DNA of 64,000 nucleotides from the NCBI GenBank assembly GCA_964351885.1, contig CAYGPP010000001.1:95911-159910 (forward strand), in the 5' to 3' direction. Source of the DNA: an uncultured Marinoscillum sp. Lineage in GTDB: Bacteria; Bacteroidota; Bacteroidia; Cytophagales; Cyclobacteriaceae. The notes beneath the pieces were generated by a model. That model had not been told where the DNA came from and made no database searches. It saw nothing but the letters and a program-made list of their open reading frames with translations. Of the stretch, positions 2,755 to 58,619 are shown piece after piece. Both the position numbers and the translations under genes were made by a program. The number at the start of each line of letters is the position of its first letter. Position 1 is the first letter of the stretch.

Positions 2755-5700
2755 ATGTTTGACAATCAATTACAACAAAACATCACCAAGTTCAAGCGAA
2801 AACACTTCCTGAACCTTTTGATCAAAGGGCTATTAATCTCAGTCTTATTTTTTGGTGCCGTTTTCCTCATCTCTGGGGTTCTCGAGGGTTACTTCTGGTT
2901 CAATTCTTCTGTCCGACTTGGTCTATTGTTGGGCTCCTCACTTATTCTTGTTTATACTCTACTCAGGCTTGTAATTATCCCTTTAGCCGCCGTTCTTAAC
3001 CTTGAAAAGAACCTTACTGATGAAAAAGCCGCAAACCTTATTGGAAGACATTTTCATGAAATTTCAGACAGGCTAACCAATCTTGTTCAGCTATCTCAAC
3101 AATCAGCTAATGAAAACTCGCTACTCTCAGCGGCTCTTATTCAAAAATCCTCAGAGTTAAAAAAGTTCCGCTTCAGTGATGCTGTAAACTTTAAAGTCAA
3201 TTTCAAATATTTGTACTACCTAATAGCGCTGGCTCTATTCATCATCTGTATTTCTTTTATAAACCCTTCTATTCTATCAGATGGAACGTCTCGAATTCTG
3301 AAATATGACAAAACTTTCCTCCGTCCTGTGCCATTCTCATTCCACTTAGAAAGTAACCCCTATGGGTTTAGCGGAGAGCCTTATGAGCTAAAAGCACGCA
3401 TTGAAGGAAATACCATACCAGAGTTAGTCTATATCGTTGATGGAAACACCCGATTACCAGCTATTCTATCGGGTAGAAACATCTCTTTTAAAATACCCAC
3501 ACTTACAAAATCCAAAAAAATAACTTTTGAAGCCTCTAACTTTTCTTCACCTGAATACACCATCGAGCTTTATAATAGACCAGAAATTCAAAAACTAGAA
3601 ATTCAAATAAACTTCCCAGAATATCTTAATACCAAAAATCCTATCACCTCAAAATCAGGAAACCTGACAATACCAGAAGGATCTAAAATTTTATGGACAG
3701 TTACATCACAATATGCTGAATCTGTTTTTCTCACTACTCCCGATAGTTCTTTTATTATGTCTCATGAAGAGCGTGGAATATTTGCAATTCACCAGACAGC
3801 TTCCGAATCTTTTTCTTACGCACTTGACCTGTCTAATGCAAAAGCTCAAAATGCAAAGCCCATTGAATACGCAGTTACAGTAATCAAAGATCAATACCCT
3901 GAAATTAATGCAGTTTTCAGTCTAGATAGTATCAGCTATGCCTCTGTGGTTATCATGGGTAATATTGCTGATGACTATGGTATTAGTGGTCTTAATCTCC
4001 ATTACAAGATAAATTCTGACTCCAAATATCAAACAAAAGCTATTCCGTTTACACGCGGTAATAACGATCAAAACTTCATTTATGATTGGTCATTGAGTGG
4101 CCTCTTTCTCAACGAAGAGGATGAAGTTACCATATATGTTAGTGTATTTGACAATGATAGAATCAATGGCCCAAAAAGTTCTAACTCGGTTCGCTATCTC
4201 TACAAAAAACCCTCTTCTTCGCAAATAGAAAAAGAAATCGATGCGCTTAGTGACCAATCACAGAGTGCGCTTGAAAATTCTCTCAAAGAGAGTGAATTGC
4301 TTCGTGAGCAGATAAAAAATCTCGAATTGAAACTCAAAAATGATCAGAAAGTGGATTGGCAAGAAGAGAAAATGCTTCAAAAAGTACTTTTAAATCGAAA
4401 AAAGCTAGAAGATGAAATTGAAGAGCTGAAGAAACAATCCAACTTACTGAATCAGACCCGAAAAGAGTTTAACAAACAAAGTTCAGATCTTCAGAAAAAG
4501 GCTCAAAAGCTTCAAGATTTAATTAACGAAGTATTAGATGAAGAAACTAAGAAGCTCTATGCAGAATTGCAGGAACTATTGAAGAAAGAAGCTAGTTCTG
4601 AGGAAGTTTTAAAGCAACTAGATAAAATTCAATCCAATGAAAAAAACTTAGAAAATGAGCTTGAACGCGCTATAGAGCTCTTTAAGAGAATGAAAATGGA
4701 AACGCTTCTCGAACAGGCTGCCGAAAAACTCAATCAATTAGGAGAAAGGCAAGAAAAACTTGGGAGTGAAGAAGAAAAGGGTGATGTGAGCAAAGCGCTA
4801 GAACAAGAAAAAATAAACGAGTCTTTCGAAGAACTAAACAAAGATATTGAAGAGGCTCAAGACATAAACAAGGACTTAAAAAGTCCTGAACCAATTGACG
4901 AGTTGGACTCTGAGCGAGAAGATATTCAAAAAGATTTAGAGAGCTTAGAAAATGAATTAAGCCTTGATAATCAAGATGATAACGATCAAAAAAAGGCTAA
5001 AAACAATCCAGATAGCGATCAGAAGATGAAAAACGCAGGGCAAAAAATGAAGATCCTCGCTGGTAAGATGATGCAAATGCAAGCCAGCGCTGAAATGGAA
5101 ATGATGCAGGAAAACATGGACAATTTAAGAGATATCTTAGATAACTTAATTAAGCTGTCCTTTGAACAAGAAGATATTTTAACTCAAATAAAGCAGGTCA
5201 GCCAACTAGATCCTCGCTTCATTGAACTCTCCCAAGAGCAACTAGACCTTACAGATAATATAGAGGTAATCGAAGATAGTCTTCTAGCTCTAGCCGGTCG
5301 AGTAATACAAATTAGCAGCTTTGTCACGCGTGAATTGAGCTCCATTAATGAACACCTTGAAAAGACCATGTTCCAATTAAGAGAGAGAGATAAAGGAAGA
5401 GCGACTAGCGATCAACAGTTTGCAATGACTTCTATGAATAATTTAGCCTTACTCCTTGAAGATGTACTTGAGCAGATGCAAATGTCAATGTCTGAGGCAA
5501 TGGGGAAGCCTCAGAAAGGAAACAAGAAAGGTCAATCAATGCCGAGCATGTCAGAAATCCAGAAACAATTGAGTCAACAAATTCAAGACTTGAAAAAAAG
5601 CGGAAAACAAGGGAGAGCTCTTTCGGAAGAGCTAGCAAAACTGGCTGCCGAACAATCAGAACTACGCCAGTCACTAGAACAAATGAATGAGCAATTAGGC

Positions 5701-6078
5701 AATCAACCGGACCCGAGTGGGAAAGGACAAGGTAATGAAGAAGGAAGTAAGCTGAAAGAGGCAATCAAGAAGATGGAGGAAAATGAGGTTGATTTAGTGA
5801 ATAAGAGGTTAACACAACAACTCATCGATAGGCAACAACAAATACTCACCAGAATGCTCGAAGCAGAAGAATCAATGCGCAAACAAAAGGAGTCAGCAGA
5901 AAGAAAAGGAGAAACTGCGAACCAAAACATAGGTAAGTACCCTCCAGAGATCGAAAAATATCTGAAAGCAAAAGAAAAGGAAATAGAATTATTAAAAACT
6001 ATTCCCTTAGATTTAGAACCCTTTTACAAAAAAGAAGTTAACGATTACTTTAGACGTATAAGTCTTCCAAATGAATAG
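2755..6078 (+). CDS. DUF4175-like membrane-anchored protein with long E/K/Q-rich coiled-coil C-terminal half
   Basis: The N-terminus (FKRKHFLNLLIKGLLISVLFF... two TM helices ...IGRHFHEISDRLTNLVQL) is typical of Bacteroidetes DUF4175. About 550 aa of heptad-like charged sequence follow. Confidence 0.7.
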   Translation: MFDNQLQQNITKFKRKHFLNLLIKGLLISVLFFGAVFLISGVLEGYFWFNSSVRLGLLLGSSLILVYTLLRLVIIPLAAVLNLEKNLTDEKAANLIGRHFHEISDRLTNLVQLSQQSANENSLLSAALIQKSSELKKFRFSDAVNFKVNFKYLYYLIALALFIICISFINPSILSDGTSRILKYDKTFLRPVPFSFHLESNPYGFSGEPYELKARIEGNTIPELVYIVDGNTRLPAILSGRNISFKIPTLTKSKKITFEASNFSSPEYTIELYNRPEIQKLEIQINFPEYLNTKNPITSKSGNLTIPEGSKILWTVTSQYAESVFLTTPDSSFIMSHEERGIFAIHQTASESFSYALDLSNAKAQNAKPIEYAVTVIKDQYPEINAVFSLDSISYASVVIMGNIADDYGISGLNLHYKINSDSKYQTKAIPFTRGNNDQNFIYDWSLSGLFLNEEDEVTIYVSVFDNDRINGPKSSNSVRYLYKKPSSSQIEKEIDALSDQSQSALENSLKESELLREQIKNLELKLKNDQKVDWQEEKMLQKVLLNRKKLEDEIEELKKQSNLLNQTRKEFNKQSSDLQKKAQKLQDLINEVLDEETKKLYAELQELLKKEASSEEVLKQLDKIQSNEKNLENELERAIELFKRMKMETLLEQAAEKLNQLGERQEKLGSEEEKGDVSKALEQEKINESFEELNKDIEEAQDINKDLKSPEPIDELDSEREDIQKDLESLENELSLDNQDDNDQKKAKNNPDSDQKMKNAGQKMKILAGKMMQMQASAEMEMMQENMDNLRDILDNLIKLSFEQEDILTQIKQVSQLDPRFIELSQEQLDLTDNIEVIEDSLLALAGRVIQISSFVTRELSSINEHLEKTMFQLRERDKGRATSDQQFAMTSMNNLALLLEDVLEQMQMSMSEAMGKPQKGNKKGQSMPSMSEIQKQLSQQIQDLKKSGKQGRALSEELAKLAAEQSELRQSLEQMNEQLGNQPDPSGKGQGNEEGSKLKEAIKKMEENEVDLVNKRLTQQLIDRQQQILTRMLEAEESMRKQKESAERKGETANQNIGKYPPEIEKYLKAKEKEIELLKTIPLDLEPFYKKEVNDYFRRISLPNE

Positions 6079-6472
6079 CATACAAATACAAATCCCATCC
6101 ATATCTGAGAATATCAGAATCGTTGAGAGTTTTATAGATAACGCCAAAGAAAAATACTCATTGGAGGATGATATATACGGCAACATCATGATTGCCGTAA
6201 CTGAGTCAGTTAACAATGCAATCATTCATGGGAATTCTCAGAATTCTAAAAAGAATGTCTCGCTGAGTCTTGAAGTAACTGAGGACGTGTTAAGTTTTAC
6301 AATTTCTGATCAAGGAGCAGGTTTTGATTTCAATCAGCTTCCAGACCCAACTTCGCCAGAAAACATTGACAAGCTTGGGGGCCGAGGTATCTTCTTAATG
6401 AAGCACCTATGTGATGAGGTTTCTTTTAATAACGAGGGACGGGAGGTTGTTCTTTCTTTCTATTTGAATTAA
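6071..6472 (+). CDS. HATPase_c-type ATP-binding protein (anti-sigma-factor / RsbW-SpoIIAB-like Ser kinase)
   Basis: N-box ESVNNAIIHG and G-boxes ISDQGAGF / GGRGIFLM. The start overlaps the DUF4175 stop by 8 nt. Confidence 0.7.
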   Translation: MNSIQIQIPSISENIRIVESFIDNAKEKYSLEDDIYGNIMIAVTESVNNAIIHGNSQNSKKNVSLSLEVTEDVLSFTISDQGAGFDFNQLPDPTSPENIDKLGGRGIFLMKHLCDEVSFNNEGREVVLSFYLN

Positions 6473-6897
6473 TGGAAACTGTTTTCTTCTTTAGTGAAGA
6501 TGTTGATTATTGTTTGCCTTCCGAAGCTGAAATTAGGAAATGGCTGGAGCTAGTTGCCTTAGACGAGAATCAAACTTTAGATAGTCTCAACTATATATTC
6601 TGCTCAGATGAATATCTCCTCAACATAAATCGGGAGTTTTTAAATCATGACTACTACACCGATATAATCACATTTGATAATTCTAATGACCAAGCCCTAA
6701 TACAAGCTGATATTTTCATTAGCATAGACCGTGTAAAAGAAAACGCCCTAAACAACAATGAGGACTTCAACTTGGAACTCAAGAGAGTTCTGGTGCATGG
6801 TTTGCTTCATCTTATAGGATACAATGATAAAAAGTCGGAAGAGCAAAGAGCAATGCGCCAAAAAGAAGATAGCTGCTTATCTTTGTTTCTAAAATAG
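6472..6897 (+). CDS. ybeY: rRNA maturation endoribonuclease YbeY
   Basis: Zinc motif HGLLHLIGYNDKK (HxxxHxxGxxH). TAATG stop/start overlap with the upstream gene. Confidence 0.9.
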   Translation: METVFFFSEDVDYCLPSEAEIRKWLELVALDENQTLDSLNYIFCSDEYLLNINREFLNHDYYTDIITFDNSNDQALIQADIFISIDRVKENALNNNEDFNLELKRVLVHGLLHLIGYNDKKSEEQRAMRQKEDSCLSLFLK

Positions 6898-6961
6898 TTC
6901 CACGTGGAACGTTTATCTGCTCTCCACTAAAAACTAATGTTTCACGTGAAACAATAAATCC

Positions 6962-8827
6962 ATGTTTCAAGAATATGATGTCATCGTTGTTGGAGCCGGT
7001 CACGCCGGATGCGAAGCTGCTGCTGCCGCCGCAAACCTTGGGTCCAGGGTTCTGCTAGCCACTATGAATATGAATACCATCGCCCAGATGTCATGCAATC
7101 CTGCAATGGGTGGAGTGGCCAAAGGGCAAATCGTTCGAGAGATAGATGCTCTTGGTGGATACTCTGGGGTTATTACTGATAAGTCGATGATTCAATTTAG
7201 AATGCTCAACAAAAGCAAGGGTCCGGCTATGTGGAGTCCCAGGGCACAATCTGACAGAATGCGCTTTGCTGAAGAATGGAGACTAGCCCTAGAGCAAACA
7301 CCCAACGTTGATTTCTGGCAAGAAATGATCTCTGGTATCATCGTCAATGATAAGCAAGTAGTTGGTGTTCGAACCAACTTGGGATTAGAGATTAGATCCA
7401 AATCTGTCATATTAACCAATGGAACATTTCTAAATGGTCTTATTCATATAGGAGAAAAACAATTCGGTGGTGGTCGAGCAGGAGAGAAATCAGCTCACGG
7501 CATAACTGAACAACTCGTAGAGCTAGGTTTTGAATCTGGAAGGATGAAGACAGGCACCCCACCTCGGGTAGATGGTAGAAGTCTTGACTACTCCAAAATG
7601 GAAGAACAAGCTGGGGACGAGCTTCCCGAAAAATTTTCATATCTCGACAGCACCCAGCCTTTAACAACACAACGAAGCTGCTGGATTACCTACACCAACT
7701 CAGATGTTCACCAGACTTTACAGACGGGGTTTGAAAAGTCCCCGATGTTCAACGGACGAATCAAGGGTCTTGGTCCAAGATACTGTCCATCTATAGAAGA
7801 TAAAATCAATCGCTTTGCGGAAAGAGATAGGCATCAAATATTTGTGGAGCCTGAAGGTTGGAATACAGTAGAAGTCTATGTGAACGGTTTCTCAACAAGT
7901 CTTCCAGAAGATGTTCAATACAAAGCAATACAAAAAATTGCAGGATTTGAAAATGCTAAAATGTTTCGCCCTGGGTATGCCATAGAATATGACTTCTTCC
8001 AGCCCACACAGCTTACTCAGACATTAGAAACAAAGCTTATTAAAAACCTGTTCTTTGCTGGTCAGATTAACGGAACGACTGGATATGAGGAGGCTGCCTG
8101 CCAAGGGCTTATTGCGGGTATAAATGCTCATCTCTCCATTAAAGAATGTGAGCCATTTATACTTAACAGGTCACAAGCGTATATCGGCGTACTTATAGAT
8201 GATTTAATCAATAAGGGCACCAATGAACCTTACCGGATGTTCACTTCTCGTGCTGAGTATCGACTCTTACTACGACAGGACAATGCCGACTCCCGTCTGA
8301 CGCCTCTTGGCTATGAATTAGGACTTGCCTCCCTAAGCAGATACGAACAGTGTATGAACAAGATGCACGCAACAAAACGCTTAGTCAATGATCTAAAGCA
8401 AAAGAAATACAAACCCCATGATATAAATCCTCTCCTCTCGAATAAAGGTTTTGCTCACATAAAAGACACCTCCAGTTTATATCAACTTCTTAAAAGACCG
8501 GAGGTAAATTTGGAAGTACTCTCCCAGCTTGACAGTAACGTATATGAATTCCTCTCTTCCTTCTCAAGACATGTCAAGGAAGAAGCAGAAATCCTCATAA
8601 AATACGAAACCTATATTGAGCGTGAACAAGAAAACGCTTTGAAAATGATAAGTATGGAGAATAGAGTTATAACTCCTGGTTTCGACTACAGCCTACTATC
8701 ATCAATGTCTCTTGAGGCACGGGAAAAACTCAATACCATTCGTCCTTCCACACTGGGTCAGGCATCCAGAATAAGTGGTGTTTCATCTTCTGATATTTCA
8801 ATCTTAATGGTATTTCTCAATAAATAG
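6962..8827 (+). CDS. mnmG: tRNA uridine-5-carboxymethylaminomethyl modification enzyme MnmG (GidA)
   Basis: [19 protein letters not shown] motif, [27 protein letters not shown]. 621 aa. Confidence 0.95.
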
Positions 8828-8828
8828 A

Positions 8829-9713
8829 ATGTATCAAAAGCTAGAAGAGTGCCCCATATGTAAGCATCAGAGTTTCTCTAATTCCCTGATTTGTGAAGAT
8901 TATTCACAGTCTCATGAGAGCTTTGTAATAGTAAGGTGTAACAACTGTGATCTGCATTTTACAAACCCTCGGCCAGATGAGCAAAACATAGCCAAGTACT
9001 ATGATCACAAGGATTATATTTCTCACACCAATAAAGCCAATAACTTTATTAACGCGATTTATAAAATAGCTAGGTATTATACGCTTAGACAAAAAGAAGG
9101 TATCATCAAAACATACACAAAACAGAAGAAGCTTCTTGACTTTGGGTGTGGAACAGGTATATTTCTCCATCACATGAGTAACAGCTCCTTCAATGTTGAG
9201 GGTTATGAACCATCCGAACAGGCCCGGCTGTTATCCTCACAGTCAGGAAAGTTCCAAATTCACAATAAATTAGACCAAATACAGAAAAACAAGTACGATA
9301 TAATTACCGCTTGGCACGTCCTCGAACATGTACATAGTCTCAAGAAAACCTTGAAAGTACTAAGAAACTCCTTGACCAGAAGTGGAATTATTATTGCAGC
9401 CGTTCCTAACTTTAAATCGTTAGATGCCCAAATCTATAAACACCAGTGGGCTGCCTATGATGTACCGAGACATTTATATCATTTCAATCAAACTGCTTTT
9501 TCAGCTTTGGCTGCAAGCTGCAAGCTCAACATCAAACAGGTACACCCAATGATGCTCGATTCCTACTATGTCTCCATGCTCAGTGAGTCTCACAAAGGCA
9601 CTAGCTCTTCTATCCACAGATTGGTCAATGGGTTCGTAAACGGGCGAAAATCTAACATCAGCGCCTCACAAACTGGAGAATATTCTAGCCTTATATACGT
9701 CCTATCAAAATGA
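8829..9713 (+). CDS. class I SAM-dependent methyltransferase with N-terminal zinc ribbon
   Basis: CPICK...CNNC ribbon and SAM motif I LLDFGCGTG. Confidence 0.8.
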   Translation: MYQKLEECPICKHQSFSNSLICEDYSQSHESFVIVRCNNCDLHFTNPRPDEQNIAKYYDHKDYISHTNKANNFINAIYKIARYYTLRQKEGIIKTYTKQKKLLDFGCGTGIFLHHMSNSSFNVEGYEPSEQARLLSSQSGKFQIHNKLDQIQKNKYDIITAWHVLEHVHSLKKTLKVLRNSLTRSGIIIAAVPNFKSLDAQIYKHQWAAYDVPRHLYHFNQTAFSALAASCKLNIKQVHPMMLDSYYVSMLSESHKGTSSSIHRLVNGFVNGRKSNISASQTGEYSSLIYVLSK

Positions 9714-11431
9714 AGCATTTACTGCTAGCTATCTTCACTCTTATTCTAATAGAACTTGTTACGTTCGGTTGTGCTAACCCTAAGACTCCAACCGGAGGTC
9801 CCAAAGACACCATACCTCCTGTCATTCTCAACTCCACCCCCAAAAACCAATCTATCAACTTCAATGATAAAACAGTTGAACTTTCATTCAATGAACCGAT
9901 AAATGCAGACAAGCTCAAACAGAACCTCATAATTACGCCAACATCAGAGTTCAGTTATAAAGCGCTTGTCAAAAAGAATACGCTAACGCTCATTCTTGAT
10001 GAGTCTCTGGCAGATAGTACCACCTACACCTTCAACTTCTTTGACGGAGTTACAGATATCACCGAAAAAAATCCTTCAGATAATCTTGTTCTCGCCTTCA
10101 GCACTGGATCCTATATTGATTCAATATCCGTTTCCGGAAAAGTTTATGATATAATTAATGAAAATCCACTTTCCAAAATCACGATTGGTCTATATAAACA
10201 AACCGATACCCTTAATTTTACCATTGATAAACCCACCTATTTCATTAACTCAGATGACGAAGGATTTTTCAATATTCAAAATATCAAGTCGGGAGAGTAT
10301 CGGTTGCTTGTCTTTAATGACGAGAACAAAAATCTCTTATTTGATCCCTCAATCGAAAATCACGGTTTCCTAAGAGGCATTCTATCACTTGATTCCATCA
10401 ACATTGATTCATTGAACATCCCACTCTTGGAGCTTGATGTCTCCGAGCTATCCTTTTTAACTGGACGCCCATCATCTCACTACTTTGATATCCGATATTC
10501 TAAACCTCTCGTAACCTATGACATTGCCAGTGAACTCAATAAGCCAGTATATTCCAAACTTACGGAAGACCAAGATGCCATACGTGTATATAATATCAAC
10601 ATGCTTGCTGATAGCACACGTCTAGTAGTTACTGCCTTTGATACACTCGCATCATTCACAACCGATACCCTGTACGCCATCTTCCGATCCAGCTCAAAAA
10701 AACTAAATGCATTGTCTACCCAGATAACCCCCAAAACGAATAGCGTTTACTTCCCTGACGAAACTATTTCTATAAGCTTTAGCAAGCCGATAACGACTAT
10801 TACAGATAGTGCCTTTCTAGAATTCAGAATAGATTCGCTCATATCCTTTGATCTGCCAGTGAAAGGGCTATCCATGAATCAACAAAATACACTTATTACG
10901 TTTAGAACAACCATTGAACAACAGCAGATCAAGGACACCATTAATTCCTATCTAAGCCAACACCACGTTGACACATTAAATATTGATACTACACAACTCA
11001 TCACGAACAACCGACTCAATAAACACAACTCTAACAGCTTTACAATCTATCTTAAGACTGGCACATTCATTAGCGTAGAGTCAGATACAACCACTGAAAT
11101 CGCCCAGACATACCAGTTCCCGAATACAGAGACTTTTGGAAGCATTAATGTAACCATTGATAATCCCGCGAGCTCCTATATTGTACAAATTATGTCAGCC
11201 CAAAAAGTAGTACGGTCTCAAAAAAATTGTCTGGATTGCAAGTTCGATTTCATAAAACCTGGAAAGTACTGGACTAGGATACTACTTGATACTAATGAAG
11301 ACCATGTCTGGTCTCCTGGTAATATAAATTACGATATCCAGCCAGAACCCATAATCTACTTTCATGAGGAGACAACACTCCGGGCCAATTGGGAAGTAGC
11401 GCTTAATTACTCACTCTTGATAACCCGATAA
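9710..11431 (+). CDS. Ig-like (SbsA/Big_5-type) domain lipoprotein
   Basis: Lipobox LVTFGCAN followed by PTGGPKDTIPPVI, typical of the N-terminal Ig-like domain family. 4-nt ATGA overlap with the upstream gene. Confidence 0.6.
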   Translation: MKHLLLAIFTLILIELVTFGCANPKTPTGGPKDTIPPVILNSTPKNQSINFNDKTVELSFNEPINADKLKQNLIITPTSEFSYKALVKKNTLTLILDESLADSTTYTFNFFDGVTDITEKNPSDNLVLAFSTGSYIDSISVSGKVYDIINENPLSKITIGLYKQTDTLNFTIDKPTYFINSDDEGFFNIQNIKSGEYRLLVFNDENKNLLFDPSIENHGFLRGILSLDSINIDSLNIPLLELDVSELSFLTGRPSSHYFDIRYSKPLVTYDIASELNKPVYSKLTEDQDAIRVYNINMLADSTRLVVTAFDTLASFTTDTLYAIFRSSSKKLNALSTQITPKTNSVYFPDETISISFSKPITTITDSAFLEFRIDSLISFDLPVKGLSMNQQNTLITFRTTIEQQQIKDTINSYLSQHHVDTLNIDTTQLITNNRLNKHNSNSFTIYLKTGTFISVESDTTTEIAQTYQFPNTETFGSINVTIDNPASSYIVQIMSAQKVVRSQKNCLDCKFDFIKPGKYWTRILLDTNEDHVWSPGNINYDIQPEPIIYFHEETTLRANWEVALNYSLLITR

Positions 11432-37291: not shown

Positions 37292-37384
37292 TTTTCCTTT
37301 AGGCTTTTAGTCCTGATTGGGACATTGCTGATTGTCATATTAAACCTTTAATTTGATCTGCGTTAGATCAAACTAAAAACATTG

Positions 37385-38773
37385 ATGACTGCACTAACCA
37401 CGCTCCAAGAAATCCCTGAGTTTAAGAATGTACCCAAGTCGCAGCTGCAATGGCTACTAGATGAAGGAGAAATCAAGACTTATGATACTGGAGGGCTGAT
37501 ATTTCAGCCTGGAGATTCTATTGATTCTCTCATTATTATTCTGGAAGGTCAAGCCGTAATCAAAGCAAAGCAAGGCAATCAATTTAGAAAGGTGGCCACC
37601 CTAGAGAAATATGCCATCACCGGCAATTTGCCTTATTCGAGAGCAGACAAGGCTTTTGGTTATGCTGAGGTAACTAATTCCACTACAACGCTGATGTTAC
37701 CAAAAACTAAGTTTCGAGAGATGATTGTTGATAATGTAGAGCTGACTACAGCACTAGTACATACTATGAGTAGTAGGATAAGGGATTTCACAAAGTCACA
37801 ACAACAAAATGACAAGATGATGGCGCTTGGTAAGCTTTCCGCCGGGCTCGCACATGAACTTAATAATCCATCCGCCGCAATTTTAAGAAGTGCTCAAAAC
37901 CTCGGAAAGCATTTGAAGCAGATTCCGGAAGGGTTTAAAAAGGTGATAAAAATCACGATGACAGACGAGCAAGTGGATATTGCCAATAAGATTTTGTTTG
38001 ATAAAATGTCTTCAGAGAAGCCTAAGTTGAGCATGATGGAGAAGTCATCTCTAGAAGATGAACTGCTTGATTGGTTAGAGGAGAACGAAATTGAAGATGC
38101 CGAAGAGGTTGCAGAAAACCTTGCTGCCTTTGGTTTTGACATGGACGATATGGATAAGATCGCTACTCAAGTACAGTCGAAGGATTTGCAGCCAGTCATT
38201 CATTGGTTCAACCAAATGCTTGTCACGGATAGTTTGGTTGATGAAATTAAGGATGCTTCGCAGCGAATTAATACGCTAGTCACTTCCGTGAAAAGCTATA
38301 CCCATATGGATCAGGCTCCAGAGAAAAAGGCAACTGATGTGCATATTGGACTTGACAACACCTTGGCAATGCTCAACCATAAAATCAAAAAGAATCAAAT
38401 CAAGGTTCGAAAGGAATTTGATTTCGAAATAGCTAAACCGTGCATATTGGTAAGTGAAATGAATCAAGTTTGGACGAATGTTATCGATAATGCCATTGAT
38501 GCAATGGAAGAATCAGAAACCAAGGAACTAACGATTCGAACAGTTCAGGACGGTCAGTTCGTAAATGTTTTCATAGCAGATTCAGGCTCTGGAATCCCCG
38601 AGTCTGCACAAGGAAAGGTTTTTGATCCATTCTTTACTACAAAATCAATTGGTCAAGGAACAGGTCTGGGAATGGAGGTTGTCCATCAGATTGTTACACA
38701 GCACAATGGTTCAATCACTTTTGAAACTGAGCCGGGAAAAACAGAATTCAAAATTTGCATTCCTATCAAATAA
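37385..38773 (+). CDS. cyclic-nucleotide-binding domain sensor histidine kinase
   Basis: N-terminal cNMP-binding beta-roll (aa ~20-130), H-box LSAGLAHELNNPSAA, N-box NVIDNAIDA, G1 ADSGSGI, G2 GTGLGM. ATG 37385 preferred over TTG 37382. Confidence 0.85.
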   Translation: MTALTTLQEIPEFKNVPKSQLQWLLDEGEIKTYDTGGLIFQPGDSIDSLIIILEGQAVIKAKQGNQFRKVATLEKYAITGNLPYSRADKAFGYAEVTNSTTTLMLPKTKFREMIVDNVELTTALVHTMSSRIRDFTKSQQQNDKMMALGKLSAGLAHELNNPSAAILRSAQNLGKHLKQIPEGFKKVIKITMTDEQVDIANKILFDKMSSEKPKLSMMEKSSLEDELLDWLEENEIEDAEEVAENLAAFGFDMDDMDKIATQVQSKDLQPVIHWFNQMLVTDSLVDEIKDASQRINTLVTSVKSYTHMDQAPEKKATDVHIGLDNTLAMLNHKIKKNQIKVRKEFDFEIAKPCILVSEMNQVWTNVIDNAIDAMEESETKELTIRTVQDGQFVNVFIADSGSGIPESAQGKVFDPFFTTKSIGQGTGLGMEVVHQIVTQHNGSITFETEPGKTEFKICIPIK

Positions 38774-38776
38774 GTT

Positions 38777-40438
38777 ATGAAAAAGCCAATCATATTTCTA
38801 ATCGATGATGATCCTGCTGTACTCAAAGCGGTCACCAGAGATATCAGATCGGAGTACAGAAGTAATTATAAAATACTAGCAACTGAGTCTGCTAAAGAAG
38901 GGTTAGAAGCTCTCAGAGATTTGAAGAATAAAGGCGATGTTGTGGCTCTTTTTATCTCAGACCAGAAGATGCCAGAGATGCTTGGAGTAGAGTTTTTGGA
39001 GCAAGCCAAAACATTTTACCCTGAGGCTAAAAGAATATTATTGACAGCCTACTCTGATACCGACGCTGCAATCAAAGCAATCAATGATGTGCAACTTGAT
39101 TATTATCTCATGAAGCCTTGGGATCCGCCAGAGGAGAAGCTTTATCCTGTGATCAATGATCAATTAGATGAGTGGCAGAATAATTACCGACCAGAATTCG
39201 AAGGGATAAAAATTATCGGTTTTCAATGGTCGCCAAAATCTCATCATATCAAGGATTTCCTATCCGGAAACTTGATTCCATATCAATGGCTGGATATAGA
39301 AAGTTCAGAAGAGGCAGATCAACTTACCCAAATCAATGCGATTGAGCGTGCGGATCTTCCTGTCGTATTCTTTGAAGATGGCAGCTATCTTAAGAACCCT
39401 ACGCTTACGGAAATAGGGAATAAAACAGGGATGAATGTTCAGGCGAAGCAAAAAATGTACGATGTTGCCATCATTGGTGCAGGACCAGCAGGGTTAGCAT
39501 CAGCTGTATATGGAGGATCGGAAGGGCTCAATACCTTGCTAATCGAAAAGAGAGCTCCAGGAGGACAGGCTGGAACTAGCTCGAGGATTGAGAATTATCT
39601 CGGTTTCCCAAAAGGACTTAGCGGCGCAGAATTATCTCATCGAGCAATAACTCAAGCAACTCGTTTTGGTATTGAGTTTTTATCTCCTCAAGAAGTTGAG
39701 AAACTAGAGGTGAGGGATAATTATAAGATTTTAACGCTGAAAGACGGGTCTGTTATTAACACCAAAAGTGTGATTGTCACAACGGGCGTGGACTACCGCA
39801 AGCACCCAGCGAAAGGGATAGACGATTTTACCGGTGCGGGTATCTACTATGGCGCTGCGACGACCGAAGCGGGAGCATGTAAGGGTGAAGATGTATACAT
39901 GGTAGGAGGAGGGAATAGTGCCGGTCAGGCAGCCATGTATCTTTCAAAGTTTGCCAAGAATGTATATATCGTGGTTCGCAAACCTGATTTGTCCTCTAGT
40001 ATGTCTCAATATTTGATCGACCAGATTGCTAATACGGACAATATCCATGTGCTCGGTCACACGGAGCTGGTGGAGGTTTTGGGAGAAGACAGGCTTCATT
40101 TCATTGAATTGCAAGACACTCATAGCAAAGAGGTCAAGAAGGTTCCTGCGGCAGCACTATTTATTTTCATTGGGGCAAAACCAATCACGGACTGGCTGCA
40201 ATTATCTTTATTGAAAGATCCAAGAGGCTTTTTGGAGACAGGGAACTCGTTAACCAAGTACGATAATTTCAAAAAAGTATGGAAGCTTGATCGTGAGCCA
40301 TTTTTATTGGAGACCTGTATTCCAGGAATTTTTGCTGCTGGGGATGTAAGAGCCGGCGCTATGAATCGGGTGGCATCAGCAGTGGGAGAAGGTAGCATGG
40401 CTATCAAATTTGTACATGAATATTTAGCAGAAAACTAA
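38777..40438 (+). CDS. fused response regulator (REC) / glutaredoxin-like / thioredoxin-reductase-like flavoprotein
   Basis: REC domain with DD and phospho-acceptor D62 (LFISDQKMP). FAD motif AIIGAGPAGL, NAD(P)H motif MVGGGNSAG, GIFAAGDV. Confidence 0.85.
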   Translation: MKKPIIFLIDDDPAVLKAVTRDIRSEYRSNYKILATESAKEGLEALRDLKNKGDVVALFISDQKMPEMLGVEFLEQAKTFYPEAKRILLTAYSDTDAAIKAINDVQLDYYLMKPWDPPEEKLYPVINDQLDEWQNNYRPEFEGIKIIGFQWSPKSHHIKDFLSGNLIPYQWLDIESSEEADQLTQINAIERADLPVVFFEDGSYLKNPTLTEIGNKTGMNVQAKQKMYDVAIIGAGPAGLASAVYGGSEGLNTLLIEKRAPGGQAGTSSRIENYLGFPKGLSGAELSHRAITQATRFGIEFLSPQEVEKLEVRDNYKILTLKDGSVINTKSVIVTTGVDYRKHPAKGIDDFTGAGIYYGAATTEAGACKGEDVYMVGGGNSAGQAAMYLSKFAKNVYIVVRKPDLSSSMSQYLIDQIANTDNIHVLGHTELVEVLGEDRLHFIELQDTHSKEVKKVPAAALFIFIGAKPITDWLQLSLLKDPRGFLETGNSLTKYDNFKKVWKLDREPFLLETCIPGIFAAGDVRAGAMNRVASAVGEGSMAIKFVHEYLAEN

Positions 40439-53452: not shown

Positions 53453-54826
53453 TTATCCCTTAGGGAAGACCAGCTTAAAGCTGGATAGGTTATTCTGTCT
53501 GGAATATGTGATGCTCCCACTGTGTTTGACGATTATACTATAGACGAAATATAGTCCAAGTCCGAGGTGTTTGCTGCTATCCTTTGTGGTAAAAAAGGGT
53601 TCATACATTTTGGTAGCAATATGCTCTTCTACTGGGGAACCATTGTTTGAAATTTCAAGAGCTATGTATTCATTTTCATTGGACAAGTTAATTTCTACCT
53701 TGGGATCTGATAATTCGCTGGTGGCATCTGTGGCATTTTCCAGCAGGTAATTGAATGCTTGACGTACTTCCAGTATTCTCCCAATGATGAAGATGTTTTG
53801 ATTGATGTTATTCTTTACTTCGATTTTTGGAAACAACTTTTTGAATTGCTTGATATCTTCGATTACAGAGATTGAAAGGTTGAATTTCTTATAATCTGAA
53901 AAATCGCGTTGAGGTGAAATCTTGACGAGATTGGCGATTACGTTTGAAATTTTTGAAGAACCCTCTGACATGTTTTTGAGTAGAAGTTCCGTTTCTTCAA
54001 AAGAATCCAAAATTTCTTTCGGAGTGTCTTTGTCAATTGTTTTTTTAATCTCCTTCAGGTTATTGGTAATTGGCATGATTCCACCAGACACATAGTTTAG
54101 TGGGTTGTTAAGCTCGTGTGCCAACCCTGCCGTAATACGCCCTACAGAGGCCATTTTTTCAGACTGGATTAATTGATCCTTGGTTGTATTTAGGTTTTCG
54201 ATCACCCTTTGTAATTCCTCATTCGTATCGTTGAGTTTGTCATTGAGGGACTCGAGATCATTGTTTTGTTCGAATAGCAGTGTTCTATCATTGTCATACT
54301 GCGCCTTGACATAGTAGCTAATAAACAATGTCAAAAATGTCAATATGGTGAAGTTAAGTGGGCGGAAATCTTTATCTGCGAAGGAAAGATCAATGAGTTC
54401 TGGGTGGGTGGATTGAATGTAGGTCAGCAAAGCCAATAATGACAAAAAAAGGATGAGCAAGTGGAATTTATATTTTTTAGGTCCAATGACAATGACCATA
54501 ATTCCAATCATTGTGCTTGCAACAGACATGTTGCTTTTGTACCCACCTATGCTAAACCAGAAGTAGATAAATGCGGTTATCAACAGGAAGATAAGTGGAA
54601 GCCGCACATAATTGAAAAATCCTTTTTTAGAAAGAATGAAAAAACTGAGGCCAAGGAATGAGAAGATTAACTCTGCAATGGTAATTTGAACTTTACCACC
54701 TGTATTTAAGGAGGCTTGAATAGCTAAATAAGCGGCAAGAATGAAAACGATCAGACAGACATATTCGAAAAGGCGCTTCTCCAAATACTTATATCCTGCA
54801 TAATTGTTTTTTGACAGACTTTCCAC
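53453..54826 (-). CDS. multi-pass membrane sensor histidine kinase paralogue B with degenerate G1 box
   Basis: Same architecture and the shared N-terminal block LEK[KR]LFEY[LV]C. H-box ITAGLAHELNNPLNY. G1 reads ISNNGSP instead of DxGxG. G2 reads HLGLGL. Confidence 0.75.
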   Translation of the reverse strand: MESLSKNNYAGYKYLEKRLFEYVCLIVFILAAYLAIQASLNTGGKVQITIAELIFSFLGLSFFILSKKGFFNYVRLPLIFLLITAFIYFWFSIGGYKSNMSVASTMIGIMVIVIGPKKYKFHLLILFLSLLALLTYIQSTHPELIDLSFADKDFRPLNFTILTFLTLFISYYVKAQYDNDRTLLFEQNNDLESLNDKLNDTNEELQRVIENLNTTKDQLIQSEKMASVGRITAGLAHELNNPLNYVSGGIMPITNNLKEIKKTIDKDTPKEILDSFEETELLLKNMSEGSSKISNVIANLVKISPQRDFSDYKKFNLSISVIEDIKQFKKLFPKIEVKNNINQNIFIIGRILEVRQAFNYLLENATDATSELSDPKVEINLSNENEYIALEISNNGSPVEEHIATKMYEPFFTTKDSSKHLGLGLYFVYSIIVKHSGSITYSRQNNLSSFKLVFPKG

Positions 54827-54871: not shown

Positions 54872-54897
54872 AAAAAAAGCTCTGAAACTCAGAGCCT
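54872..54897 (-). terminator. rho-independent terminator downstream of the CHAT gene
   Basis: On the - strand: GCTCTGA (54895-54889), loop GTT, TCAGAGC (54885-54879), then seven U (54878-54872). Confidence 0.55.
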
Positions 54898-54925: not shown

Positions 54926-57900
54926 TTAAATCCCCACCATGACAAATGCTCCCCAGTAATATGGAGACTTCCACTTGTCTTTCAATCTTTTTTGAGCGAT
55001 AATGAAAGCCTCTTGCTTAGTTTTTCCGCTTAACCATTCTTCGTAGAATATGGTCATTAGTTCCTGAGTAGCATCATCATCAACAGTCCACATGGACATA
55101 ATGATAGCATCTGCGCCAGCTACTTGGAAGGCTCTTTGGAGACCATAAACACCTTCACCGTTTTTCACTTCTCCGAGACCTGTTTCGCAAGCAGAAAGGA
55201 CAACAAGTTCGGTATTACTAAGGTCTAGGTTCATGGCTTCAAAAGCCGTGAGAATACCATCTTCATTGTGCTTGATATCGTCAGAGATGACTCCTTCGGC
55301 AATGTAACTGTTGGCTCCAGCTAAGATAAGCCCAGATCTAAGAAGAGGATTCTGAACATAGGAGTCTTTACCTCCTTCGTGCTCATCGTCTGACTCCAAA
55401 AAGAAACCATGGGTGGCAATGTGAAGTGTCTTAGGGCTATGTACCATCTTGATACTATCTTCTAGTGCATCATTGCTGAGATATTTCGTAACTGAGGTAC
55501 TTGCGTTAGCAAATAAGCTATCAATAAGGTTTACTTCTTTTTTAGTACCCGGTAACAATGAAAGCATTTGATTGGATCTCATATACCTCAACATATTTCC
55601 TCTGATGCCTCTAGGAAGTGAACCAGCATTTGCAAGTTCACCCAAGTCACCTTCTGCTCCTCTCGCTCCACGTACGCCTCTTTCTCCACCTCTGCTGATA
55701 CTTCTACCATCCGCCGCTGCTTTTACGATTTCTGAAGCTTCGGTACCAGATTCTTCTGCTTTACTATCGATGACTCCCATGTTGTAATTAGGGTACCCGA
55801 ATAAGAATGACTTGTCCTGAAGACTTTTATTTGTGTTGTTGAACGCCACCAAGTCTTTGGTATTAGTGACCAATTGAATTTCTAATTCGTCCAACGTGAA
55901 GTTTCCTGTTGCTGGATTTCTGAGTGTATAAATACTGACTTGATTGAAAACGCCATCAGGAGATAAATAGACCTTATTAATTCCGCCAAGCTTGTTAGCT
56001 ATTGGTCTCCAGAAAAGGCGATATGAAAAGTCTTCATCGATTTTGTATTTGATGGCGTTGCGGTAGTTAGAGAGGTATTTTGACTCCATCAACTTACCGT
56101 TTTTCATCAAGACCATTTCGGGATATTCTTCCGTTTTATCAGTTACGATGAGTGCGGCGTAATAAACCTCATCTGTAAACACCCCTGCAGAATCGGGAGA
56201 AAAGTCTCTGAAACGGATGATTTCTACTGCAGCTTCGCCGGGCTTAAGTTTGGCTTGAATATCCTTCCACGTTAGCTTTCTAGCCGTTGCGTTTTCCGCG
56301 AATACAGCAGACCCCTTACTTAACTCTTTTTCAATGGCATTTGAAGAAACATTTAGTTCTTCAATTTCCTTATTTCTTTCTTCCGCCGGAATTTCGGAAG
56401 CACTAAACAGCTTTGCCAATCTTTCTTTTTGGGAGATCCACAAGTTATATTTTGCAATCAATGTAGAGTCCTTACTATTTAGAATTGCATCTTTAACTTT
56501 ATTACTGGCATATAGGATTAGCCCTTTTGTTGCCAACTGATAATCGTACATATCTCCGAGAAGCGCTTTATTTTCAGAGCTAGTTTCAACAATAAAAGAG
56601 TTGTATTGCTCAAAGCTTGGACGAAGATTGTTGTAATAGAATTTTGACTTTTCATCTTCACTTAAAATTGGGAAGACCATGTTGATCTGATCAAAGTAGT
56701 TATCGAAAGTCTCTCTGTAGAATTTCAATGCCTCGGAGTACTTTTCTTTTTTCCAGTTAAGAATGGCCAACTTATTGGTGCTGAGGGCATATTCGGAATG
56801 ATTCTTACCAACCGATTTTTTACGCAACTCAAGAGCCTTGCTATGATAGACTTCAGCTTTTTCTAAATCCCCTTGAGTTAGTAAGGCATCTCCCAAGAAG
56901 TAATTTGAGTACGCCATTTCCTTTTCATTATCTTTCGCTGACACATCTGCAAGCTGAGTTGCTTTGATACCGTAACTAACTGCTTTATTTAGCTCACGAG
57001 TCGCAGTATAAACAGCAGTGAGGTTTTGGAATACTCTCGTATAGTAGAGGCTTTCTGTTCCAAATTCTGTTTCAAATATTCCTGCAGCTAGATTGAAGTA
57101 TTCCTGAGCTTTTTCATATTCCTGAGCTTTCCTGTAATTAACGGCGAGGTTATAAACGTCCAAAGCATAAGCGAATGATTGCTTGCCGTAGAACTCTTCA
57201 TCCCAAGCTAAGTTTTCCAGATAGATTTTTTCCGCTAATTCATAGTTCCCTAAAAAGTGATAAATACTTGCTAGATTTCCTTTTAAGAGAACTTCGTACT
57301 CATCATATATTCCCTCTGTCATTCTGCTCAAAATAGATATTGCCTCTTGATAGATTTCTTCTGCAACAGGGTATTTACCTATTTGGGTGTAAAGACCTGC
57401 GAGACTATTCAGAAAGGAAACATATTCTACCGAGGCATACTCCCCATTTTCTTTCTGTATTGCTAGAGCTTCTAGTAAAGCTTTTTCAGATTTCTTATTT
57501 GATCCAGATATTTGATAGAAGTCCCCTTGGAACCTATATAGGAGGGCCTCATTTGTACTTCTCTTTTCTACATTTTTTCCTAGCTTATCAGCCAATTTCA
57601 ATCCTTTTTCATACTCCTCAGTGAATACATAATGATCAAGTAGTGATGAGGCGGAAACAAAATAGTCTTCGCTCTTAATACCAGAAAGGTCTGCTTCAAT
57701 GCCTAGGAGCTGTAAGTATAGATCCTCCGTTTTGGCATAATAACCGAGTTCATCTTGAATATATCCGAGGTTGAAAATAAGATTTCGAATGTCTTCGCCT
57801 TGCTGTCCCAACTCTGTTCTGAGAGCATATTCTTTTTCATAGAAATCAAGACTTGTGGTTAGATCGTTTTCCCAATACAAGTACGCTTCACCTAAGAAGC

Positions 57901-58117
57901 CATGCATCAAAGCTCCTAGCGTATCTTTTTTGCCGAGGAACATCGTAGTGATGTCTCCTTCGCTTTTCAGAATTTTGTCATAATCCCCATATTCGTAGTA
58001 CTCCTCAAGCTTGAGGTATAGCTTCTCAGCCTTCTTACTTTCAAATTCGTATTGTTGTGCACTCGTGGTTCCTGCGCATATCAAAATGAGGAGAATACCT
58101 GTCAGACGTATATTCAT
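54926..58117 (-). CDS. signal-peptide-bearing TPR-repeat CHAT (caspase-like protease) domain protein
   Basis: Signal peptide MNIRLTGILLILICAGTTSAQQ. About 450 aa of TPR repeats. The C-terminal CHAT domain keeps His (LHIATHGFF, codon 55409-55411) and Cys (VVLSACETG, codon 55187-55189). Confidence 0.85.
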   Translation of the reverse strand: MNIRLTGILLILICAGTTSAQQYEFESKKAEKLYLKLEEYYEYGDYDKILKSEGDITTMFLGKKDTLGALMHGFLGEAYLYWENDLTTSLDFYEKEYALRTELGQQGEDIRNLIFNLGYIQDELGYYAKTEDLYLQLLGIEADLSGIKSEDYFVSASSLLDHYVFTEEYEKGLKLADKLGKNVEKRSTNEALLYRFQGDFYQISGSNKKSEKALLEALAIQKENGEYASVEYVSFLNSLAGLYTQIGKYPVAEEIYQEAISILSRMTEGIYDEYEVLLKGNLASIYHFLGNYELAEKIYLENLAWDEEFYGKQSFAYALDVYNLAVNYRKAQEYEKAQEYFNLAAGIFETEFGTESLYYTRVFQNLTAVYTATRELNKAVSYGIKATQLADVSAKDNEKEMAYSNYFLGDALLTQGDLEKAEVYHSKALELRKKSVGKNHSEYALSTNKLAILNWKKEKYSEALKFYRETFDNYFDQINMVFPILSEDEKSKFYYNNLRPSFEQYNSFIVETSSENKALLGDMYDYQLATKGLILYASNKVKDAILNSKDSTLIAKYNLWISQKERLAKLFSASEIPAEERNKEIEELNVSSNAIEKELSKGSAVFAENATARKLTWKDIQAKLKPGEAAVEIIRFRDFSPDSAGVFTDEVYYAALIVTDKTEEYPEMVLMKNGKLMESKYLSNYRNAIKYKIDEDFSYRLFWRPIANKLGGINKVYLSPDGVFNQVSIYTLRNPATGNFTLDELEIQLVTNTKDLVAFNNTNKSLQDKSFLFGYPNYNMGVIDSKAEESGTEASEIVKAAADGRSISRGGERGVRGARGAEGDLGELANAGSLPRGIRGNMLRYMRSNQMLSLLPGTKKEVNLIDSLFANASTSVTKYLSNDALEDSIKMVHSPKTLHIATHGFFLESDDEHEGGKDSYVQNPLLRSGLILAGANSYIAEGVISDDIKHNEDGILTAFEAMNLDLSNTELVVLSACETGLGEVKNGEGVYGLQRAFQVAGADAIIMSMWTVDDDATQELMTIFYEEWLSGKTKQEAFIIAQKRLKDKWKSPYYWGAFVMVGI

Positions 58118-58619
58118 GGCAAACTGGAATTTTTTAATAGAAAATATAAATTAACTAATATTTTTTGAAGCAAACAAATTTTGCTTCAAGGGTAATTTAA
58201 CACCAATTATTGCTGAAAGTGTAAAATCTTGTTGGTTGACACCACGATACCAGGGTTTGATCTGTGGAATTTTTCTACTCTAAAGTGATGATTCTAAAAA
58301 TTGGGAAAGGACATAGCAAGAGGAGGGAGAGATAAAATTTTCATGGGAAAATGCACTTTGGGGCATGGGTGGCTCTGATCAATGGAGATAGACATGAGCG
58401 TTAGGGGTTTGGTATGACACACCAAAGGAAGCTATTGGAAGGCCCTTTTTTGTCTAACGATGATAGACATTTCGACGAACGTATGAAATAACCCTTTTAA
58501 AATATCATTTTTTTAAGGCTAGCTAAAAGGAATCATTTACTTTTATAGGTTGATATTATGCGCTGATACGAAACTAAAACAGTTAATGTATTGGCAATCA
58601 CCGCTATAACCAACCGCTG

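Follow-up and report, generated by a model that had tools for sequence, protein, structure and literature searches.

A TPR-CHAT protein of an uncultured Marinoscillum with an invariant caspase-like dyad, a Sec-type signal peptide and a probable periplasmic location

We analyzed a 64,000-nucleotide stretch of the genome of an uncultured Marinoscillum sp. (contig CAYGPP010000001.1, positions 95,911 to 159,910; hereafter the window), with a focus on the 1063-aa open reading frame (ORF) on its minus strand at 54926-58117 (coordinates including the stop codon). The encoded protein carries an array of tetratricopeptide repeats (TPRs) followed by a canonical CHAT domain in which the His-Cys dyad is invariant, which is the TPR + CHAT architecture of the separase, Craspase and DdvA type. 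The protein is almost certainly exported to the periplasm, as judged from its N-terminus and its amino acid composition, and it is probably a soluble protease there. An earlier sequence-only reading of the gene had already proposed a cleavable-looking signal peptide, about ten TPRs and a C-terminal CHAT domain with conserved His and Cys motifs, and each of these proposals held when it was followed up, none of the results that it had named as refuting being obtained. Its view that an exported TPR-CHAT protein is unusual did not hold; the protein belongs to a very large and routinely annotated Bacteroidota family.

Domain architecture and the catalytic dyad

Translation confirmed the ORF on the minus strand, and the plus-strand frame was riddled with stops. 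The closest homologues, 50-81% identical, were found in Marinoscillum, Ekhidna and uncultured Cyclobacteriaceae. The full-length protein was modeled by AlphaFold2 (AF2) with 63 homologues as input, giving a mean predicted local distance difference test score (pLDDT) of 85.4 and a predicted TM-score (pTM) of 0.79, and the pLDDT fell below 50 in two segments only (residues 805-835 and 912-917). The model begins with a helix at residues 2-20 and continues with 23 helices forming about 11 TPR-like hairpins (residues 28-484, pLDDT mostly >90), close to the ten repeats counted before; the polypeptide ends in a two-part alpha/beta CHAT module (residues 617-1062). Several Pfam TPR families were matched on residues ~100-475, among them TPR_12 (E 4.5e-36), TPR_10 and TPR_8, and a profile of the full-length homologues matched the TPR structures of kinesin light chain at E 1e-58. 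NCBIfam offered no equivalog for the protein, the partial TPR similarities being far under cut-off. The five-helix linker between the repeats and the CHAT module was strongly conserved along with the latter, and both were matched together in the nearest 150 representative clusters. The features of the gene and of its surroundings are collected in Table 1.

Table 1. Positions of the TPR-CHAT gene, its predicted parts and the flanking elements in the window
Feature	Position	Strand	Basis
TPR-CHAT gene	54926..58117	-	ORF and translation; Pfam CHAT and TPR families; orthologues at 50-81% identity
Predicted Sec/SPase I signal peptide, residues 1-20, predicted cleavage TSA|QQ	58058..58117	-	n-h-c layout; homologue N-termini; Q-rule
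TPR array, residues 28-484, about 11 helical hairpins, kinesin-light-chain-like	56666..58036	-	Pfam; profile; AF2
Five-helix linker, residues 487-607	56297..56659	-	AF2 secondary structure; conserved alignment block
N-terminal beta-sheet subdomain of the CHAT module, residues 617-776	55790..56269	-	AF2 models
Inter-subdomain loop, residues 783-850	55568..55771	-	Low pLDDT; indels among orthologues
Catalytic caspase-like subdomain, residues 851-1063, with H903 and C977	54929..55567	-	Invariance; Foldseek; profile alignment
Intrinsic-terminator-like hairpin and U7	54872..54896	-	RNA fold; equivalent hairpins in orthologous loci
Conserved block, likely Bacteroidetes-type promoter (TTTG / TATATTTT) and A-rich leader	58118..58183	-	10-locus alignment
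Divergent giant surface protein, >1793 aa	58620..64000, runs past window end	+	Open frame; Pfam
Two tandem paralogous histidine kinases, 5-6 transmembrane helices	51971..53338 and 53453..54826	-	Pfam HisKA and HATPase_c; transmembrane segments

The CHAT domain was recognized by the Pfam profile PF12770 at E 3.6e-57, with 194.5 bits against a cut-off of 24, and the match ran over residues 699-1062 and over profile positions 8-288 of 289. Both motifs of the caspase-type dyad, LHIATHGFF and LSACETG, were found, and the numbering H903 and C977 given in the sequence-only reading proved to be exact (codons at 55409-55411 and 55187-55189, respectively, with a His-to-Cys spacing of 74 residues). Neither residue varied in alignments of 63, 84 and 23 sequences, which extended down to about 25% identity, and the protein looks active as a caspase-like cysteine protease.

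The expected caspase/separase fold was borne out by structure comparison. No match was obtained when the CHAT half was searched by phmmer against PDB sequences. Foldseek with the full-length model gave low global TM-scores, since the relative orientation of TPR and CHAT varies among proteins; separase was a top match (E 3.6e-12) and DdvA was found at E 8e-11. The structure search was then repeated against the PDB with a CHAT-only model (pLDDT 85.2, pTM 0.85), which matched the Craspase TPR-CHAT/Csx29 chains at E ~1e-11 (TMq ~0.5), DdvA at E 1.5e-7, human separase at E 5.8e-7, gingipain R (RgpB) at E 5.6e-6 and SAVED-CHAT at E 2.4e-5. Every match down to E 1e-3 was a CHAT, separase or gingipain structure, with the exception of three chains of the ciliary central apparatus (9ijj_A, 9ijj_B and 7n6g_1N).

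Profile comparison with the full-length alignment was dominated by TPR matches. When the profile was trimmed to the catalytic half, it reached Craspase and DdvA, with E 0.004 for the solved TPR-CHAT, and LSACETG was aligned on LGACETD, which contains A626-C627 of the Scalindua (Sb) TPR-CHAT structure. The catalytic residues of that protein are C627 and H585. The alignment of the dyad with a solved TPR-CHAT was thus obtained for the Cys but not for the His, LCH585GE being out of register with H903 in the same profile alignment. Because of this shift, the equivalence of the two His residues is drawn not from a printed superposition but from the H-G motif, the invariance of H903 and the Pfam match.

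A Gly/Arg-rich stretch had been placed correctly in the earlier reading (residues 809-841, window 55595-55693) but was described as lying upstream of the protease fold, whereas it was found inside the Pfam CHAT envelope. It sits in the loop of residues 783-850, which joins the beta-sheet subdomain (617-776) to the catalytic subdomain (~851-1062) and is made up of an acidic helical part, a disordered (G-x-R)n run and a conserved basic motif, PRGIRGNMLRYMRSN. Residues 805-835 were predicted to be disordered, with pLDDT <50 in both AF2 models. Among orthologues the loop is rich in indels and the number of G-x-R/G-x-Y triplets ranges from 2 to 7, the window protein having six (GER GVR GAR GAE GDL GEL). 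The loop is well conserved only at its C-terminal end, PRG[IL]RGN[LM]LRYMRSN, which is still found in relatives with 35-40% identity. Among the nearest 150 clusters, most aligned in two stretches flanking the loop and left the loop itself unmatched; given this and the indels, it appears to be a lineage-specific insertion of variable position. A collagen-like reading of the G-x-R run was rejected on account of the low and variable number of triplets and the predicted disorder.

Among the known systems, the Craspase TPR-CHAT/Csx29 (e.g., PDB 8D9F, 8EEX and 7Y9X), which has the same TPR + CHAT architecture, matched the CHAT module best in structure. Csx29 differs in its cytoplasmic location, its binding to gRAMP/Cas7-11 and its activation by RNA, whereas the window protein is predicted to be exported and has a longer His-to-Cys spacing and the G-x-R loop insertion. 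No cas genes were found around the CHAT gene, and the type III-E context of gRAMP/Cas7-11 and Csx30/Csx31/RpoE is missing. Separase (PDB 9HMA and 5U1T) likewise combines a helical-repeat arm with a two-subdomain caspase-like module; however, it is eukaryotic, nuclear or cytoplasmic, much larger and regulated by securin and cyclin-dependent kinase (CDK), and at 8-10% identity the relation is one of fold class, not of orthology. RgpB, which comes from the same phylum and gave a fold match to the window protein, is another His-Cys protease of clan CD and acts outside the cytoplasm. It is a member of family C25, not of CHAT, with a prodomain, an Ig-like domain and the C-terminal domain (CTD) of the type IX secretion system (T9SS), and it is surface-attached, whereas the window protein has a TPR arm and no T9SS CTD.

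Signal peptide and predicted location

Export was judged by evolutionary and compositional tests on the sequence. The N-terminus, MNIRLTGILLILICAGTTSA|QQ, shows the textbook n-h-c layout of a signal peptide (MNIR / LTGILLILICAG / TSA|QQ), and N-termini of the same type were present in nearly all full-length homologues, from 81% down to ~25% identity and across Bacteroidota. The site also obeys the Q-rule, according to which small-x-small|Gln is the signature of signal peptidase I (SPase I) substrates in Bacteroidetes (PMC5837995, PMC10653852). Such a site was found within residues 11-45 in 44 of the 56 orthologues, as compared with 1/56 in an internal control window.

The Cys content pointed in the same direction. 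The mature protein has a single Cys in 1043 residues, the catalytic C977, and the same was true of 35 of 44 orthologues, the other nine having two. The other ORFs of at least 150 aa in the window average 0.86% Cys, from which about nine would be expected in the TPR-CHAT protein (binomial P ~0.001), and the exported proteins elsewhere in the window were comparably Cys-poor.

We then considered where the exported protein would end up. A scan for transmembrane (TM) segments found no 19-residue window anywhere in the protein that attained the TM threshold, and the h-region is short (~12 residues). It is not a lipoprotein, since the possible lipobox ILIC has Ile at -1 and its Cys, C14, is unconserved in orthologues (e.g., Ser in P0002). 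No T9SS C-terminal sorting domain (PF18962 or type B CTD) was matched by Pfam, and the CHAT domain extends to the final residue, with a strand at 1058-1062 in the AF2 model. With neither lipobox nor TM anchor nor T9SS CTD, the default destination would be that of a soluble periplasmic protein.

Transcription unit and neighboring genes

The gene appears to be monocistronic, with a promoter-like block upstream and a terminator downstream. The latter is a hairpin followed by U7, 30 nt past the stop codon, with a folding energy of -13.3 kcal/mol and a z of -4.56. In most of the sampled orthologous loci a hairpin with a T-run was seen at the same place, although the sequences differed. On the other side, a DNA alignment of ten loci (the window, L001-L004, L006-L008, L017 and L039) revealed a ~66-nt block abutting the ATG that was almost invariant, and the sequence farther upstream could not be aligned; the proteins of these loci are only 59-81% identical. 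The abutting block also fixes the start codon. Within the block, TTTG/TTG and TATATTTT elements have the spacing of a Bacteroidetes -33/-7 promoter and are accompanied by a short A-rich leader, and the block is likely to be such a promoter with its leader. A riboswitch or another known RNA was rejected as an explanation, for no Rfam match was obtained and a promoter explains the block better. A perfect 10-bp inverted repeat, TTGAAGCAAA / TTTGCTTCAA, was observed at 58165-58189, overlapping the start of the conserved block 47 nt ahead of the ATG. A comparable palindrome is carried by L001, and most other loci conserve the right arm only; the left arm being unconserved in most orthologous loci, the repeat was not regarded as an operator. 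The sequence was present only in DNA metagenome runs (biofilm).

Downstream on the same strand lie two paralogous histidine kinases, a dienelactone hydrolase, polA, a pyridoxal-phosphate (PLP) enzyme and a diacylglycerol-kinase-like protein. Members of the Marinoscillum group retain this gene order, with variable presence of the kinases and the hydrolase, and in many loci polA comes directly next. The paired kinases have only short loops between their TM helices, without a periplasmic sensor domain, followed by HisKA and HATPase_c. Related genomes have from 0 to 2 kinase copies at this place, about half of the orthologous loci having any, and no response regulator adjoins the pair among the annotated neighbors. 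An operon with the kinases was rejected because of the intervening terminator and the patchy presence of the kinases, which are probably not part of the CHAT unit.

The adjacent giant protein named in the earlier reading does exist. Its divergent ORF, of which the N-terminal part lies in the window, encodes a signal peptide, five LamG (Laminin_G_3) domains, two DUF285 (BspA-like) regions, Big_12 and PKD, and is very poor in Cys (0.17%). In ~31 of 41 related loci a giant ORF was found on the opposite strand with its start 230-420 bp from that of the CHAT gene, and in related genomes these ORFs are usually >3200 aa within the 10-kb flank. The head-to-head pair is kept in the Ekhidna loci, where the polA-side flank has been replaced. 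Searching with the giant's N-terminus returned no full-length orthologues; LamG proteins akin to this N-terminus often bear PF18962, the sorting domain of T9SS.

The GC content is 40%. Elsewhere the window is ordinary chromosome, and the CHAT gene stands in housekeeping surroundings near polA, not in a defense island. Two further observations were made away from the CHAT gene. At 37382-40438 on the plus strand lies a histidine kinase that begins with a cyclic-nucleotide-binding domain, and directly after it comes a response-regulator receiver fused to a thioredoxin-reductase-like pyridine-nucleotide-disulphide oxidoreductase, an unusual two-component output. At 2755-6078, also on the plus strand, a 1107-aa protein with one Cys and a weak, sub-threshold DUF4175 match is likely to be a large envelope protein.

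Proposed mechanism, alternatives and the exported family

On balance, we consider it likely that the protein is a Sec-exported, SPase I-processed, soluble periplasmic clan-CD cysteine endopeptidase of TPR-CHAT type, gated by a ligand at its TPR arm. SPase I would cut at TSA|QQ, the new N-terminal Gln would be cyclized, as in most exported proteins of Bacteroidetes, and the protein, carrying no lipobox, TM anchor or T9SS CTD, would remain periplasmic. Judging from separase, Craspase and DdvA, the arm of about 11 repeats may bind a protein ligand or substrate and keep the protease in a resting state until it is bound; cleavage would therefore be site-specific and regulated, not degradative. The disordered (G-x-R)n loop could conceivably act as an internal pseudo-substrate or autoprocessing site, which is speculation. 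In the most speculative step of all, the substrate would be an envelope protein in transit.

The head-to-head giant LamG/DUF285 surface protein is the best candidate for that substrate, and the idea gains some support because this gene order is conserved, yet we would still call it unlikely to be the actual one. Slightly less probable again is the fuller proposal that members of the orthogroup are periplasmic proteases dedicated to the maturation or quality control of the giant protein. The TPR arm would then capture the unfolded giant protein on its way to the outer-membrane secretion machinery, and CHAT would clip it at specific sites, possibly of an Arg-Gly type that its own (G-x-R)n loop mimics.

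Several points weigh against the proposed mechanism and its link to the giant protein. The pairing may be inherited synteny, the polA side being equally conserved in the Marinoscillum group, and more distant homologues have unrelated neighbors. In seven loci of one Cyclobacteriaceae subclade (L013-L016, L018, L031 and L042; ~5900-9900) the pair is separated by four same-strand genes, which encode products of ~291, 372, 364 and 225 aa. The C-terminus of the giant protein, and with it the secretion route, lies outside the window. The periplasmic location, like the signal peptide itself, is inferred from sequence, and a thiol protease in the oxidizing periplasm would need its Cys to be kept reduced. 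Gingipains, which are thiol proteases, do function extracellularly.

As doubtful as the maturation proposal is the possibility that the protein is a periplasmic sensor or signaling module, in which the TPR arm senses a cue from the envelope or from outside the cell and CHAT cuts either itself (e.g., at the G-x-R loop) or a membrane signaling protein. It would be a soluble version of DdvA with its output passing through the adjacent multi-TM histidine kinases. DdvA of Myxococcus xanthus is a transmembrane anti-sigma factor whose periplasmic TPR-CHAT domain has been solved by cryo-EM (PDB 8ROT/8RW5) and which is proposed to cleave itself as the site-1 protease ahead of RseP; it is the sole characterized anti-sigma factor with TPR-CHAT, and DdvA-like proteins occur mainly in Myxococcota (PMC11506125). 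The earlier statement that no periplasmic TPR-CHAT has a characterized role is thus partly outdated, DdvA being the only characterized extracytoplasmic one. Its TPR superhelix is followed by CHAT with a His-Cys dyad as in the window protein, and this precedent in signaling and the clear fold match favor a sensor, as do the two same-strand kinases directly downstream with their short loops and the presence of a kinase in about half of the orthologous loci. However, the two proteins share only 11-13% sequence identity. DdvA spans the membrane once, has a zinc-binding anti-sigma domain on the cytoplasmic side and an extracytoplasmic function (ECF) sigma factor as its partner, and regulates a CBASS/CRISPR island. 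The window protein has just 20 residues before the cleavage site, no TM window to anchor it and no anti-sigma domain, and no sigma-70 match was found among the annotated neighbors. Furthermore, a terminator stands between the CHAT gene and the kinases, roughly the other half of the loci has polA directly next with no kinase, and the adjacent genes include no response regulator, ECF sigma or anti-sigma factor.

It is less probable again that the N-terminal segment is an uncleaved signal anchor tethering the protein to the inner membrane with its bulk facing the periplasm, and less probable still that it is not exported at all. AF2 models residues 2-20 as a helix, and some CHAT proteins are membrane-anchored, e.g., HetF (PMC9457339) and DdvA (PMC11506125). 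On the other hand, the h-region of ~12 residues and the TM scan argue against an anchor, the small-x-small|Q site comes next in 44/56 orthologues, and the depletion of Cys points to an extracytoplasmic location.

Very improbable is an anti-phage or conflict effector similar to Craspase, SAVED-CHAT or gasdermin-activating CHAT, which would cleave host envelope targets upon invasion: the top structural matches are indeed defense-system CHAT proteases, and TPR-CHAT architectures are common in conflict systems, a setting in which CHAT is mentioned by PMC10907252, but those effectors are not exported, no cas, CBASS, gasdermin or NTPase gene was found among the neighbors, PADLOC gave no defense-system match save a generic TPR model, and the gene behaves as part of the core genome, being single-copy, syntenic beside polA across a family-level clade and provided with a conserved promoter. 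Gasdermin activation in particular finds no counterpart here, the gene being apparently monocistronic, between its promoter block and its terminator, with no gasdermin-like neighbor.

A regulated, soluble periplasmic endopeptidase remains the reading we favor, and its relatives are numerous. The linker and CHAT (residues 480-1063) were searched against 1.84 billion representatives and matched 92,381 representative clusters at E 1e-3, 54,129 at E 1e-10 and 11,629 at E 1e-30. Among the nearest 150 clusters, 133 were Met-started, and a deliberately crude test detected a signal peptide in 104 of these, the failures being mostly visible false negatives or fragments. As far as N-terminal sequences tell, the exported form is the rule among the relatives of this protein and no oddity, and they already bear the NCBI name 'CHAT domain-containing tetratricopeptide repeat protein'. 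Many of them (P0143, P0153, P0160, P0162, P0170, P0176 and many more) carry a motif, IPxNPNKxDxxGxRQGKWTI, right after the signal peptide that resembles MORN/YwqK-type repeats; the window protein is without it, and some carriers reach ~2000 aa.

CHAT proteases are understood through cytoplasmic cases, namely separase, Craspase, SAVED-CHAT, the gasdermin activators and HetF. Our literature searches on exported or periplasmic CHAT in Bacteroidetes yielded DdvA and an incidental mention in B. fragilis only, and no study of a soluble exported TPR-CHAT. The locus by itself shows no new mechanism; the structural reading of it was right and the claim of rarity was not. The dominant relatives in Bacteroidota, with tens of thousands of clusters, are Sec-exported TPR-CHAT proteins, and the gap in function is therefore one at the level of a class. 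The orthogroup offers a tractable entry point, being single-copy, apparently monocistronic, conserved beside polA and adjoined by a candidate partner, and it is present in the cultured strains Marinoscillum furvescens DSM 4134, M. luteum KCTC 23939, M. pacificum and Ekhidna sp. To15. If the maturation-protease proposal were true, it would provide the first function for the very large class of exported Bacteroidota TPR-CHAT proteins.

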